A stretch of DNA of 64,000 nt, from the NCBI GenBank assembly GCA_964016885.1, contig OZ024745.1, forward strand, positions 118,668,001 to 118,732,000, written 5' to 3'. The notes under the pieces are model-generated. The model made no database searches. It saw nothing but the letters and a program-made list of their open reading frames with translations, and was not told the DNA's origin. The DNA comes from Eledone cirrhosa. Taxonomy: Eukaryota. The translations under genes were made by a program, and so were the position numbers. Of this stretch, positions 3,731-33,820 are shown one piece after another (the first letter of the stretch is position 1; each line of letters begins with the position of its first letter).

Positions 3731-6700
3731 GCCAGCATGTTGAAAAAAATCCTAGTTTTCTATATTCCCTTGTTAATGTTTTTCTTGTGACTATGAGTTG
3801 TTTAACATGCATATTACAGGGATCAAATCTTTAATATAAGAAATCCTTAAATTTTGAAAGTACTAAAAACAGAGGCTTAGAATGTTTTAATAGTTTAGGC
3901 CATTAGATAAAAGGGGGAATTCTGTAAGGAAGTTTCTTGGTAACAATGCTAACATTTGATAACGAGCAGGATTACTACAACACTATATCGTAATATAAAA
4001 CAACTATTACATTACTAGCATCACCTTGATTACCATAGCACAGCTACCACTATCATATCACCTACCAATACAACGTACTAAATGAAACTGCCACAACTAA
4101 TGTTACACAAACCCCAGCCACAACCTTTTACACAACTATTACTAATATTACGCTATTAATAATACATAAACCCTTTACTAACAATTCCTTGTATAAAAAT
4201 GGTGTTGAAATTGTTTTGTTTTTTTGTTGTTATTTTCAAATTCTGTTTCAGCATGTCTACAATTAGATTTTATAAATACAAGAGAGTATTAGTCACTGTA
4301 TGTGTATGGACCACATGGGAAGATGTACGTGTATGGACACACACATATATAAGAAATACATACATACACACTGGTTTGGTTGAAATAGAATAACAGAGAG
4401 TGCTTCAATAGACTCGGGTCTGCTAAAGGTACTCAAGAAGCAGGAGGTGGCGCTAAAGGAGAGATATAAAGGGCAAGATGACATGGGTGGGTGGATGGTT
4501 AAGGGGAAATATGAGAAGTGCCTTCATGGGTTTGTTTTGGTTTACATTCCTCTACATAAGTACACACATTCTTTCATACAAAAACTAATCCATATATACT
4601 CTCACATGATGCAAACATGCACACACATATTTACCTAGTATATATATGTATGTCCATAACACACATGCACATACACATACACACATATACATGCATGCGC
4701 GCGCACACATATTTTTTATTAGATACTTTATATACTCGAGTAATAGTTGATGTTAAGTAAAAGTCAACCTTAGTATTTCACGGATAACAGGTCCACATTT
4801 GTGAGTCAACGTATCATCCCATATGTAGAATTAACACTTACAAAAGTGGAATGCTCGCTGTTTATAGTAAAACACCATATAATAGTGAGCACTACACATC
4901 TGTCGATGGGTGCTACATCACCACTACTAAGATACATGCACAAGATGTGCTGCAAGCATGCAGCCTTTATATTTTCTTCCAAACACAATAAACACATGTA
5001 TCAGCACTTGTCCCATTGTCTGTTTACATGGTGAGAAACGTGTATCACAGACAACGCTGCCAGGGAACACTAGCACACATTACTGTCTGCCGTGTGCACA
5101 ATATTATGGTAGGTAGTGGCATACTGGTAGATATATTACTCATGTGTAATATACAGTAATTATGAGATATAAATTGATTGCACTAAGCTAGTCTGTTAAG
5201 TGTGATAGATATGAGGAAAGCAGCAAGTGTAAATATTTATAAGAGCTACGCGGCCTTGTTTCTGGATTTTGTTATTTACTAGGACGTATGTTTTGATGCA
5301 CAGAGTCAGTAGTACTGTAATTTATTGTTTTTCTTTTTTTATTCGTTTAGAGATCAGTTGGGCTTCTGCTACTAATGTGGTACTTTGGATTCTAGTTCGA
5401 ATTTCAAGCCCCTCAAATGAAGTATCCATGTAAAAGTAGACCTAATAAATTTAACCTTAAAAAATTGGTCTAAGACATTTGACTTTTACACAGGTATATA
5501 CACGTATGAGAGAGAGAAAGAGAGAGAGAAAGAGAAAGAGAAAGAGAAAGATCATCTTCATCCTCTTCACCGTGTTATGTCTATTTTCTATGCTTGCATG
5601 GGTTAGATGCATTGTTACATTCTGGGGTTAGTCCGGTCACTTCTAGCTCATGTTTCATATTGGCATGGTTTCTATGCTAGAATGCTCTTCAGAAAGCCAA
5701 CCACTCTACAGTGTTGTAATGGGAGTATTTTATCGTAATGTCACCAATTTTTCAGAGTAAACTGGGTGTTGTTTACCATGGCACCAGCACTAGAGTGTTG
5801 GTTAGAAGTATGTTATTATGGCACCAACCCTACAACTTTACATAGTGGTGTATATGGAAGCATGTATAATATGTTTCATCATCATCATCATCATCATCAT
5901 ACATCCATTTTTTTCATGCGTGCATGGGTCAGACGAGTCGTCCGTGTCAAGAGACATGTCTGGCCAGGGTTTTTTGCAGTTGGATGCCCTTCCTTACATC
6001 AACAATATATACAGTGTTATAAATAATATACATAAATTTTGTTGTGGATATTTTAAGCTGTGGTCATGTCATAGTTACCTTAGTAGCCATGTTAGAAAAC
6101 TAAATAGCACTATTTCAGGGTTTTTTCTATCTTCAGTACAGTTCAGTTCAGAGGCAAAATAAGCTGACAGCTTATATAGATTTTTGTTAATAATACATTT
6201 ATAGTGATGCTCATTTGCATATAATGGAAGCTTGATGAGCTGGTATTGATTAGCAGTAACACAAGATAATTCATAATAGAGGTGTGTATGAAAACATATA
6301 CAGCATCTCTATGTATATCACCATCGTCATTTTACATCCATTTCTCCACACTGGCATGAGTTAGACGAGTTGTCCTGTTGTGGGCAATGTTAAGTCAGGT
6401 GACCATGTCTTGCTCATATAGAACTGATTTTGGCTTGGTTTCTACAGCTGGATGCCCTTCCTATTGCCAACCTCATTTACAGTGAGTACTGGGTGCTTTT
6501 TGTCATGTTACCTACATGACCACTTTACAGTGAGGGTATTTTAAGTTGTAATCATGTGTTTCAATTTATTATATATAAATGTATTGTATGTGCTACTGCC
6601 ATAAGAAAGTTAGGATTGAAGGGATTTTTAAAGCTTGCCAAATAAAGGGTTGGGGGGACCTTTCAGTCGTATCAAAAACCTGACAGCCTCCCTAGTGTTG

Positions 6701-7085
6701 GTGATCTACATGATAAATTCACCCAGTACACTGTGTTCCTTCCCGGTATGGTCCAAGTTTCAGATCATCCCTGATTACCTCTTCCCTGTCTACCAGGGTC
6801 TACAACCTTGCAACATCAATATATCTACTCACCACTGCAGTTGACATGTCTAACATAGTCTGTATTACAGAGTCAAGTGCTGGCATTTTTAATTAAAACC
6901 ATAGTATTTATGTTGTTTATATTTTCCAACACATTTTAGATGTTTAAAATAAACTGAGTTCTATTGGATCCCTGTTATGATGACAAGTGTTCCAGTTGTT
7001 CAAACAATGGAACAACCTACTTAAGAAATGTACAAGTAGCTGGACAGGCAGTGCTTTCCATAAGAAATATCGTCATAATAATAAT

Positions 7086-7260
7086 TGTTTCTACTTTTGG
7101 CACAAGGCCAGCAATTATCCCAGTGCATTACTGGTACTTTATTTTATCGACCCCGGAAGGATGAAAGGCAAAGTCAACCTCGGCGGGATTTGAACTCAAA
7201 TGGCAAGGGCCGTAACTATGCGCTAAAGCATGGTGTCCGACGCTCTGCCGATACTGCCAA
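7086..7260 (-). mobile_element. tRNA-derived Meta-like SINE
   Basis: Same family as 1668-1840. Confidence 0.85.
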
Positions 7261-7611
7261 TGCTTTCTTCTTTCTATTTACCAATCTAAAGCACTATAAA
7301 ATTCTATCAACTGTAATATGATATATTTTGTTTATATGTATACACACACACACATACAAATGTATATATAGGTATGTGCGTGCATGTGTGTGTGTGTGCA
7401 TGTACACATGAGCATGTATATGCGTGTTTAAATACATACATATATATGTGAATGTGTATACATATATATATGTTTAATATATATATATGTATATATAATT
7501 GTGTGGGATGCTTAAGGCGTCCGTATGCGTTAGGCCGTTTGAGCACTCGATGCTCTTATAGAGCAGAGTATAATATAATATTATTTGGAAACTCTGCTTC
7601 GAAGAATCGAC

Positions 7612-7704
7612 ACGTATCTGAGGATCTTGCGATTTCGGAGTCAGGTTCGATCATTGCATCGACCGTGCCTCGAGCTGGTCGCTAGAGAAACGATTGTAAT
7701 ATGT
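7612..7704 (+). ncRNA. Type I hammerhead ribozyme motif (intact core) in a (TA)n-flanked element at ~7498-7752
   Basis: Stem I acgtat/atatgt; ctgagga at 7618-7624; stem II tcttgcgatt/ggtcgctaga; gaaa at 7687-7690; c-gatt-g-ta with GUA cut after 7698. Confidence 0.8.
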
Positions 7705-7977
7705 CTAATAAATTTTAATTTGTCACACCACTGATTCTCCGTTTCTTATGTGATATATATATATATAAATCATATCTGTTAGGCTGTTTACCAACGGGTA
7801 GAACCGGTGGTTCAGCTTGGTAAATGATGATGCAACAAATTAATTAAAGCACTCAAAGTTATGCCAATCATCCATCGTAGATGTGGTATCCAGTGTTTGG
7901 AGCAGGAACGGAGTAAAGAATTCATTAAAACAACAGAAAGCTGGTCTGGAAAATATATTTTAGAATTTTAATTCCTC

Positions 7978-8061
7978 GCAAGCACTATACATATTTAGAT
8001 GGCCCAGCTCTATCATCCGATTATGATGTAGAACTAGATGATTTCTTCAGGTGTTACTTGC
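7978..8061 (-). ncRNA. Decayed hammerhead motif
   Basis: Minus strand reads gcaagtaacac-CUGAAGA-long stem II-(U)AAA-uaugua-ua|gugcuugc. GAAA is mutated to UAAA and the base of stem II is eroded. Confidence 0.55.
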
Positions 8062-8652
8062 AGAATTATATAATAGGATTACATTGAACCCAAATACAGA
8101 ATAGGAGGTAGAAGACACAAAGATATTGAAAATAGGGGACCAATTGGATTCGGTGACCGCCTGCTAATTTGGTGTTACACCGATAGCAGACGATATAAGT
8201 ATGTGAAGTGTGTATATCGGATAATATACGATTTGTTTATGAATAAACATTTGAAAGCCTTTAGCTATGAATTCTAAAAGGTGGTGGCAGGGCGCCACCT
8301 GGTGACTTCCAACAGAAGCAAGGGGAAATTACCGACTGCTGTTTCTGGCTTATTGGCCATTGTCAAGATAAAGTACCACTCTACCCCCTATGTTGGAACG
8401 AACACTTTAATTAAAGAGAGATTACTCTGCTTTGTAAAACTATCAGCTTTAATGATATCCTTTATATATATAGATCAATTAAATAGTTATCTGTCTCTAA
8501 TACTTAGACATCTCAATGAAAGGAAAAAATATATTAATAAATTATCAACTCGTAGAAGTAATGAAACATATTAAACTGAAGCCAAAATCTCTATTTGGGG
8601 GGATATTAGCTGGTATATATGCTTTATATATGAATATATGTATATATGTATG

Positions 8653-9468
<816 letters not shown>

Positions 9469-10290
9469 ATGTGTGTGTATGCTTTATATATATATATATG
9501 TATATATGTATGCTTTATATATATGAATATATGTATGTATGTATATATATGTGTGTGTATATATGTATTTGTGTTTAACACACCCACCTCCTATGAAATG
9601 CAACCTTGAAAGAGGCCAGCTAAACCTACACAGGCGTGGGCTGTAAATTTCATTTTCATTTCATATAATAAAGGTCTGTTTTTTATATTTATTTTTCACA
9701 ACGTTTAACATGGTTAGTGTACATAATTGGTGTGTGTGCAAGTGCATGTGTGTGTATTTGTTGTTAATTTATTAACTGTTTAAATGTATAAGTCATTTTC
9801 CAGGTAGCCTGCTTACCCTGTTGCCTCACCATCTCTACTTATCTACCTATCTATATCCTTAGCCATTCTATCTGTCTTCTCCTTTCACTTCCATATGCGA
9901 AACTCTTATTTCCTGACAGACAACATCTCTAGAACAGCACCAACACACATTACTCTGGTTTCTTATAGGAATGGGATTCAGCAAGATTTTTTTTGCCGAA
10001 AGACCATGACTAGCACAGCCTACAGTATTGAAAATAATTGCATATACAGCAGGGCTAACACTAACCATGCTAGTGCCTCACACAGTAATAAAGAGGCTAG
10101 CTGAGGGCATGTGCAAGAACTCCTCAATCATCATCAAATGATTTAACATTCCCTTTCAGGTATGGGAAGACAACCCTAACATCAATGTAAGGTAACCTAA
10201 TTCAGAACTGTCACATTTAATGTTGGCACACTGAAAGGTAAATCAAGTGCAATTATGGACATGCTGGAGTAGTGACAAATAGGTGTGTGC

Positions 10291-10775
10291 TGTGAGCAAG
10301 AGGTAAGATGGAGGGGTTGTGGGCAAGAGGTGAGATGGAGGGGTTGTGGGCAAGAGGTGAGATGGAGGGGTTGTGGGCAAGAGGTGAGATGGAGGGGTTG
10401 TGGGCAAGAGGTGAGATGGAGAGGCTGTGAGCAAGAGGTGAGATGGAGGGGTTGTGGGCAAGAGGTGAGATGGAGGGGTTGTGGGCAAGAGGTGAGATGG
10501 AGGGGTTGTGGGCAAGAGGTGAGATGGAGAGGCTGTGAGCAAGAGGTGAGATGGAGGGGTTGTGGGCAAGAGGTGAGATGGAGGGGTTGTGGGCAAGAGG
10601 TGAGATGGAGGGGTTGTGGGCAAGAGGTGAGATGGAGGGGTTGTGGGCAAGAGGTGAGATGGAGAGGCTGTGAGCAAGAGGTGAGATGGAGGGGTTGTGG
10701 GCAAGAGGTGAGATGGAGGGGTTGTGGGCAAGAGGTGAGATGGAGAGGCTGTGAGCAAGAGGTGAGATGGAGGGG
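10291..10775. repeat. 27-bp minisatellite, ~18 units
   Basis: Unit gggcaagaggtgagatggaggggttgt, with a recurring variant (gagaggctgtgagcaa). Confidence 0.95.
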
Positions 10776-10812
10776 CTGCATCAGCCAGACACCTCACAAG
10801 CATACTATTTAA

Positions 10813-11023
10813 CCCTTTAGCATTTACATTACTTTATATATACTATTATATTTTTGTGTTAAAGGCTTTATCTCACATAATTATCCCACATAATATGGAA
10901 TCTATGGGATTTTGATATTATTTATTTTGAGAACAATACCTTTATATCAGTATGAGTCACCGGTTTGAACAGAAAAAGGTGAGAGAATTCTGGCCAGATA
11001 TAGCCGGTTTAAATGCTAAAGGG
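10813..11023. mobile_element. piggyBac-type MITE
   Basis: TIRs ccctttagcattta/taaatgctaaaggg with TTAA at 10809-10812 and 11024-11027. Relatives at ~16342-16530, 18897-19103 and ~60011-60190. Confidence 0.85.
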
Positions 11024-11597: not shown

Positions 11598-12840
11598 CAG
11601 TGGTTCCCAATCGTGTGTGTACCATCCCCCACCTTAACATCTGAAAAATTGTTATGCAACCCCTGCTTTGATATGAAAACAGCAATGATCAACTGCAAAG
11701 TGTAAAGAAATTGGTGTATAGGTGGTGCCAGATACACAATAACAGGAGGTGAGACAGGAGTTTCTGACAGTAATGTGTACCAAAGTTACCTTGGTGTAGG
11801 TGGTGCCAGATACACAATAACAGGAGGTGAGACAGGAGTTTCTGACAGTAATGTGTACCAAAGTTACCTTGGTGTAAGTGGTGCCAGATACACAATAACA
11901 TATGGAGGAGGTGAGACAGGAGTTTCTGACAGTAATGTGTACCAAAGTTACCTTGGTGTAGGTGGTGCCAGATACACAATAACATATGGAGGAGGTGAGA
12001 CAGGAGTTTCTGACAGTAATGTGTACCAAAGTTACCTTGGTGTAGGTGGTGCCAGATGTACAATAACATATGGAGGAGGTGAGACAGGAGTTTCTGACAG
12101 TAATGTGTACCAAAGTTACCTTGGTGTAGGTGGTGCCAGATGTACAATAACATATGGAGGAGGTGAGACAGGAGTTTCTGACAGTAATGTGTACCAAAGT
12201 TACCTTGGTGTAGGTGGTGCCAGATGTACAATAACATATGGAGGAGGTGAGACAGGAGTTTCTGACAGTAATGTGTACCAAAGTTACCTTGGTGTAGGTG
12301 GTGCCAGATGTACAATAACATATGGAGGAGGTGAGACAGGAGTTTCTGACAGTAATGTGTACCAAAGTTACCTTGGTGTAGGTGGTGCCAGATGTACAAT
12401 AACATATGGAGGAGGTGAGACAGGAGTTTCTGACAGTAATGTGTACCAAAGTTACCTTGGTGTAGGTGGTGCCAGATGTACAATAACATATGGAGGAGGT
12501 GAGACAGGAGTTTCTGACAGTAATGTGTACCAAAGTTACCTTGGTGTAGGTGGTGCCAGATGTACAATTACGTATGGAGGAGATGAGACAGGAGTTTCAG
12601 ACAGTAATGTGTACCAAAGTTACCTTGGTGTAGGTGGTGCCAGATGTACAATTACGTATGGAGGAAGTGAGACAGGAGTTTCTGACAGTAATGTGTACCA
12701 AAGTTGCCTTGGTGTAAAAGTAATAAAGTAAAACTTGAGGTTTGTTCTCATTAACATAATTTTCAAATGGCCCCCCCCCCCCCCCTTAAATATTCAAATT
12801 TCCCCCATGTAGGGTGTGTGCCCCACGTTGAGAATCACTG
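11598..12840. mobile_element. Non-autonomous hAT element carrying an internal tandem array
   Basis: TIRs cagtggttcccaa/ttgagaatcactg with a perfect 8-bp TSD cactagac (11590-11597 and 12841-12848). Confidence 0.9.
11713..12716. repeat. 84-bp tandem repeat, ~12 units (first two are 78 bp)
   Basis: 28-aa periodicity in the ORF track; directly visible. Confidence 0.95.
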
Positions 12841-26835: not shown

Positions 26836-32987
<6,152 letters not shown>

Positions 32988-33062
32988 GTATGTGGTTGTT
33001 GAGAGGAAAGAGTACTCAATACCAAAGTAGATTTTTAAGATTCAATTTATTAAGGCTAAACA

Positions 33063-33820
<758 letters not shown>

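Follow-up and report, generated by a model that had tools for sequence, protein, structure and literature searches.

The closest described relatives of the repeat analysed here are Penelope-like elements (PLEs) of the Hydra clade. According to Craig et al. 2021 (PMC8557442), these elements carry an RWK motif, DKT in place of DKG and a CxCX5C motif, lack CCHH, and have CxxC and CxH around conserved E and N; they insert into (TA)n, bear a canonical hammerhead near the 3′ end and are generally shorter than 3 kb. Insertions with an inverted 5′ copy and a one-sided tail have been described for PLEs (PMC8557442 and PMC3846280). For another PLE studied in vitro, PMC11167929 reports two internal reverse transcription starts bounding a tail, cutting of both strands and the use of uncut RNA as substrate. 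PMC3846280 offers self-priming on antisense RNA as an alternative origin of inverted junctions.

We analysed a 64,000-nucleotide stretch of the Eledone cirrhosa genome (the window), in which a sequence-only reading had singled out positions 7498-7752 as a compact, highly structured RNA of three hairpin domains resembling a non-LTR retrozyme monomer. Comparison of family copies shows that these 255 nt are a two-armed insertion in (TA)n. Very probably it represents the pseudo-LTR (pLTR) of a Hydra-clade Penelope-like retrotransposon, inserted as two short arms into a TA microsatellite. The element's own endonuclease and reverse transcriptase (RT) are its likely source: both target strands would have been cut, and the 5′ region of the RNA copied from each of them. 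The features of the locus are as follows.

7330..7497, unstranded: (TA)n/(CA)n microsatellite on the left, the target of insertion (sequence; other copies are also (TA)n-flanked)
7498..7576, minus strand: inverted arm, the optional 79-nt 3′ tail, spanning the gap between the element's two alternative 3′ ends (copy comparison)
7545..7569, minus strand: bulged hairpin at the tail start, a few nucleotides past 3′ end 1; candidate RT-start signal (fold)
7577..7582, unstranded: 6-nt filler at the head-to-head junction (compared with native junctions)
7583..7752, plus strand: direct arm, a 5′-truncated, tail-less pLTR carrying the hammerhead (copy comparison)
7612..7617, plus strand: 5′ strand of stem I, pairing with 7699-7704 (pair probabilities 0.5-0.6)
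7618..7624, plus strand: catalytic core CUGAGGA (sequence)
7625..7686, plus strand: 62-nt stem II region, a rod without branches but with imperfect pairing; its first two base pairs are followed by a pyrimidine mismatch (RNAalifold)
7687..7698, plus strand: GAAA core strand (7687-7690), helix III (7690-7697) and GUA (7696-7698) (sequence, fold)
7753..7768, unstranded: right (TA)n tract (sequence)

The TA tracts reported on both sides are present, and the stretch is CpG-rich as claimed, with an observed/expected ratio of 1.5 vs 0.41 for the window; target-site duplications are unreadable within (TA)n. The copy differs from the family majority at 4.1% of positions (median of copies, 5.8%) and is probably inert, and a search within the window found no second copy of 7498-7752. 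Several other repeats lie nearby. An interspersed repeat of about 180 bp at 7079-7261, which looks SINE-like, has at least eight further window copies at 84-92% identity; positions 8687-8798 and 9230-9340 form a 112-bp direct duplication (97% identity); minisatellite arrays with units of about 27 bp and 81 bp and long repetitive open frames occupy 10200-10830 and 11650-12730; and 27000-33000 holds about 6 kb of near-pure TA repeat with a GC content of 5-9% and extreme strand skew.

The two-armed structure became apparent from copies in which the same parts occur in another order. In 12 of 30 loci, chosen on their upstream sequence, the tail (7498-7576, hereafter A) follows the hammerhead repeat in the same orientation, and the order on one strand is upstream sequence, B (7583-7752), reverse complement of A, then (TA)n; A is thus an optional tail that is inverted in the window copy. 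Between A and B, five copies (L014, L022, L027, L030 and L035) hold a reverse complement of B's 3′ end of variable length, and another, L033, holds the whole of B as reverse complement. The tail also precedes the ORF start in full-length copies. Because the tail arm is antisense to the hammerhead arm, the first two proposed hairpins do not belong to one RNA, and the three-domain molecule of the sequence-only reading dissolves: its first 79 nt are an inverted tail.

The whole 255 nt folds modestly better than shuffled sequence, with z-scores of -2.25 on the plus and -2.50 on the minus strand, so that neither high structuredness nor the suggested selection on the plus-strand RNA is borne out. 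Taken separately (300 shuffles each), the hairpin at 7509-7545 gives -1.1 and +0.2 on the plus and minus strands, the domain at 7547-7610 gives -3.1 and -3.0, and the hammerhead alone gives +0.8 and +0.4. The middle domain is stable, but on both strands alike; in it, the first bases of the tail pair with a similar stretch that opens B, and the two lie together on one strand only through the inversion. The copy comparison identifies the domain as a by-product of the inversion junction, its halves derived from two oppositely oriented arms. An Rfam scan of 5000-10500 returned no hammerhead among 49 matches at E<=10; the matches were microsatellite-driven, miRNA-like and below gathering scores.

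The repeat belongs to a large dispersed family. A search of the animal's own genome (3.0 Gb) yielded 3532 candidates, 40 of which were scored; the full-length ones among these, the window itself excluded, are 84-96% identical and sit sharp-ended in (TA)n. Exact genome matches to a 22-mer taken from the hammerhead's 3′ half number 2,215, vs 0 for its control; as 36 of 68 aligned copies hold the exact 22-mer, the corrected figure is about 4,200 arms. The homologs proposed as a check thus number in the thousands. There is also a sister family (3246 candidates), with 76% DNA identity in the RT and a homologous hammerhead motif; its majority core (L190-L219) reads CCGA vs CUGA, and its stems are still compensated. 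We ruled out a MITE or DNA transposon for the family, as there are no fixed-length terminal inverted repeats and an RT is linked.

The hammerhead itself is where it had been placed. CUGAGGA, GAAA, GUA and stem I lie at the positions listed above and fit the type I pattern CUGANGA / GAAA / NUH, with helix III available only as an intermolecular duplex; the cut is predicted, from sequence only, at 7698/7699, after GUA. All three core parts are intact in 37 of 68 copies. The motif thus stands as a plus-strand type I hammerhead in a mobile, protein-free piece of about 250 nt. Helix III consists of 8 self-complementary nucleotides with a monomer pair probability of 0.01, and its self-dimer has 8 bp at -7.8 kcal/mol; the central pair is G-C, G.U or A-U across lineages. 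Helix III is accordingly predicted, on this folding model, to need a dimer.

Stem II is long, as proposed, but is predicted to be unbranched, both in the hammerhead-constrained fold and in RNAalifold, and the proposed register of its inner helix uses a base private to the window copy (C, vs T in 63 of 68 copies). An alignment of 15 family copies with 14 of 20 fetched sister copies gave an RNAalifold stem II of 15 pairs, 5 of them with compensatory changes, and in the full 27-pair model 91.8% of cells pair vs 26-43% in slid controls. Both sides are changed in 9 pairs of this model, a count that is not significant by itself (9 vs 6.9, matched by 53 of 500 shuffles); in stem I, 3 of 7 pairs are changed on both sides. 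Most of the changes represent a single between-family contrast. Sequence comparison points to covarying hammerhead helices and to a stem II that is long, conserved and under structural selection.

A genome-wide search for a long-spacer hammerhead pattern with a perfect palindrome gave 101 matches vs 1 for the control; together with the between-family compensatory changes, this places the hammerhead far above chance. Among 30 long-spacer hammerheads examined, 19 form a stem I of at least 4 bp, in several unrelated sequence families, and tblastn near the 30 placed a Hydra-like protein at 5 loci, in mixed orientation and with no clean linkage. Several sequence-unrelated families across the genome (L110-L139) share a stem II of 45-75+ nt and the same palindromic helix III; their stem I sequences differ yet still pair, and some of them also appear to have two alternative 3′ ends. 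Within the window, a separate type I hammerhead-like motif of unrelated sequence, with a short stem II, lies beside a microsatellite at 33070-33125 on the minus strand.

We traced the parent element by walking upstream through the copies, which form a staircase of 5′ truncation (3532 > 626 > 127 candidates). The upstream sequence comprises a UTR of about 1.9 kb and then an ORF with reverse transcriptase and GIY-YIG; RT and endonuclease (EN) pieces lie on the same strand upstream of the repeat in L105 and L107. Translations contain RMRWRAF (RWK-like, with R for K), DKT and an RT core ending in YRDD, followed by a CxCX5C linker and a GIY-YIG domain that lacks CCHH and has CxxC and CxH flanking conserved E and N; RMRWRAF and DKT were found in L171, L175 and L107. 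The ORF matched the Pfam GIY-YIG family PF01541 at E=0.004, below the curated cut-off, and none of four RT pieces matched an RT family in Pfam. Every ORF piece seen is interrupted. Judged by these motifs, compared by eye with the published set, the parent is an EN+ Penelope-like element of the Hydra clade. Its length, estimated from overlapping copies, is about 5.5 kb, and L105 alone spans 4.8 kb without the N-terminus; this exceeds the <3 kb given for the clade, a length that is a tendency rather than a strict criterion.

Among 20 loci with the RT N-terminus (L170-L189), 11 have the pLTR and/or the tail in direct orientation just before the ATG, which lies about 44 nt past the tail end. This position identifies B plus the tail as the pLTR of the element. 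Both subfamilies occur attached to the ORF; the idea that subfamily S2 exists only in short form was ruled out, since S2 pLTRs precede the ORF in L175, L176 and L178. Fragments of other elements were seen in the fetched loci. L105:1-2400 holds RT and EN pieces of a second Hydra-like family and, after them, a hammerhead-like motif whose stem II region measures about 100 nt and whose first core strand is altered in the L105 copy; L031:2683-3228 (minus strand) is a GIY-YIG fragment of a different, CCHH-type Penelope-like element.

These arrangements bear directly on the proposal that the stretch is a classical non-LTR retrozyme monomer, that is, a 255-nt unit of three plus-strand domains, cut by its hammerhead, circularised and re-inserted. 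Its size, type I hammerhead, non-coding nature and high copy number would all fit. Head-to-tail arrays are absent from the 95 fetched loci (vs 2,215 sites in all), however, where we counted 28 opposite-strand neighbours and one same-strand neighbour that is a rearranged single arm. Moreover, the first 79 nt are antisense, the unit does not end at the cleavage site and has its ribozyme in the middle rather than at the junction, folding has no strand bias, a single RNA molecule forms too weak a helix III, and a Penelope-like element that codes for protein has this sequence as its terminal repeat. The retrozyme-monomer reading is thus already largely refuted, and we consider it very improbable.

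The arms share a sharp 5′ edge. Relative to the first core base, the 5′ ends of 30 arms, which are not independent (six pairs share insertions and two share a flank), fall at -35 to -10 in 20 cases, at -5 to +61 in seven and at -96 or beyond in three, with none between -36 and -95; the direct arm of the window copy begins at -35, the family hot spot. Exact 20-mers at this edge number 380 just inside vs 115 across, or about 1,570 vs 230 after correction for capture rates of 16/66 and 15/30. That the RNA starts there is a likely explanation for the 27 arms whose 5′ ends fall inside the motif or in the 35 nt before the core. Five of the 11 upstream pLTRs extend past the proposed start at -35, so longer read-through RNAs must exist too. 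In contigs from two runs of one sample, depth changes stepwise at this 5′ edge and loose ends occur there, but contig depth is no measure of copy number and we give the observation no weight.

The edge could instead mark a stall or template switch of the RT at an RNA structure, an alternative that concerns only the edge and that we hold to be somewhat unlikely. A stall is favoured by the scatter of the ends across about 25 nt, by the presence at the edge of a degenerate version of the tail hairpin sequence, and by the five pLTRs that run past it. The ends lie 5′ of the stable hammerhead, however, so the RT would already have copied it; at -2.1 kcal/mol, the hairpin at the edge is weak; the interval from -36 to -95 is free of arm ends; and sister-family copies, by eye and uncounted, appear to have their starts about equally far away, in a sequence that differs. 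A transcription start remains our preferred reading of the edge.

At the other side, about 3-4 nt at each of the two 3′ ends are shared with the (TA)n target. The bulged hairpin after 3′ end 1 has a predicted stability of about -8 kcal/mol; the sister family has a fold at the equivalent position, and a weaker look-alike lies past 3′ end 2. Exactly one tail was present in 13 of 15 two-armed insertions, drawn from the first 30 matches of the 22-mer and read by eye. A transcription start at the edge would combine with these ends into a single copying scheme. The element RNA would begin about 35 nt upstream of the hammerhead core, and the RT would have two internal start sites, both of alternating A and U and separated by 79 nt; synthesis primed in the upstream pLTR would then reach the 5′ end of the RNA within about 250 nt at most. 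By analogy with Poseidon_Ac, the RNA starting at -35 may be primed in its upstream pLTR by both target strands, and a tailed cDNA and a second, tail-less cDNA would then join head to head, as in the window copy. The hammerhead may need a dimer or a protein partner to cleave at all, and the RNA that was inserted would have been uncut (compare PMC4209133 and PMC11167929). Longer copies would arise where read-through RNA was primed at its downstream pLTR; this would also account for the five of 11 upstream pLTRs that pass -35.

One may also postulate a non-autonomous mini-element, SINE- or retrozyme-like, in which solo pLTR copies are transcribed and re-copied in trans, such that most of the family stems from short masters and not from full-length RNA. 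About 85-90% of arms are short and share a common 5′ edge; a preprint (10.64898/2026.07.22.740005) derives animal retrozymes from PLE pLTRs, and pLTR sequences suffice in cis for mobilisation according to PMC3846280. Both subfamilies are also ORF-attached, however, a short-only lineage was not found, and tailed arms would need sequence past 3′ end 2, which solo copies would lack if the second hairpin is a signal. We regard short masters as an unlikely main source, although they are compatible with a pLTR insertion by the Hydra-clade machinery.

A further, speculative extension of that insertion model, to which we give little weight, assigns the hammerhead a role less in cutting than as an RNA-pairing and start-site module. 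Helix III would join two element RNAs that start 35 nt upstream; the two nicked TA strands would prime them by pairing over 3-4 nt at the two AU sites that the hairpins mark, yielding head-to-head insertions with one tail in one step.

Much of this family matches what has been described. With the Hydra clade (for example Hydra-1_Obim and Hydra-1_Amil in PMC8557442) it shares the order of RT then GIY-YIG, the RWK-like, DKT and CxCX5C motifs, the lack of CCHH, the (TA)n target and the inverted 5′ copy with its one-sided tail. The published hammerheads of the clade are of type I and lie close to the 3′ end; stem II is flanked on either side by one additional nucleotide, and helix III is short and self-complementary. 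The element class, the hammerhead and the inverted tailed insertions are already known. The family is distinct from Hydra-1_Obim, with a hammerhead that by eye has a different sequence. Its core and stems I and III match the published Hydra pattern, whereas stem II is longer, its region having 62 nt, vs 10-24 nt in the 26 Hydra rows of the published table; the Rfam scan matched no hammerhead. The tail has 79 nt vs the 30-40 quoted for PLEs, and the 3′ UTR of about 1.9 kb and low-complexity ORF inserts further set the element apart from the clade.

Poseidon_Ac (Frangieh et al. 2024, PMC11167929) likewise has two internal RT starts bounding a tail and an AT-rich target, and its hammerhead lies upstream of the start points with uncut RNA being copied, as we infer for the present family. 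It differs in the position of the ATG, which in our element is found about 44 nt beyond the tail rather than inside the hammerhead, and in that our 3′ ends overlap (TA)n by about 3-4 nt, whereas Poseidon_Ac starts at a site that lacks homology to the cut DNA. Non-LTR retrozymes of animals (Cervera and de la Pena 2020, PMC7229834; preprint 10.64898/2026.07.22.740005) are similar in having a type I hammerhead, a length of a few hundred nucleotides, no coding capacity, many copies and a relation to PLEs; in contrast, the present family has head-to-head arms, no tandem arrays in the 95 loci and a direct link to a coding element. The dimer-type PLE hammerheads of Cervera and de la Pena 2014 (PMC4209133) share the weak palindromic helix III, predicted dimer and low expected monomer activity, and have a much shorter stem II.

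Our literature search, with most subscription journals outside its reach, found no paper on long-stem-II hammerheads from the Hydra clade or cephalopods; the nearest long-stem-II precedent seen, in a published table, is PLE-X1_sMoe (53 nt), which is flagged as non-canonical and belongs to another clade. Because Rfam did not pick up this hammerhead, with its stem II of about 60 nt, hammerhead counts in such genomes may be underestimates. What is new relative to these systems is an undescribed family with a long, conserved stem II, whose thousands of copies form a fossil record giving exact coordinates (a putative RNA start, two candidate priming sites and a predicted dimer interface) for the poorly understood copying cycle of the Hydra clade.
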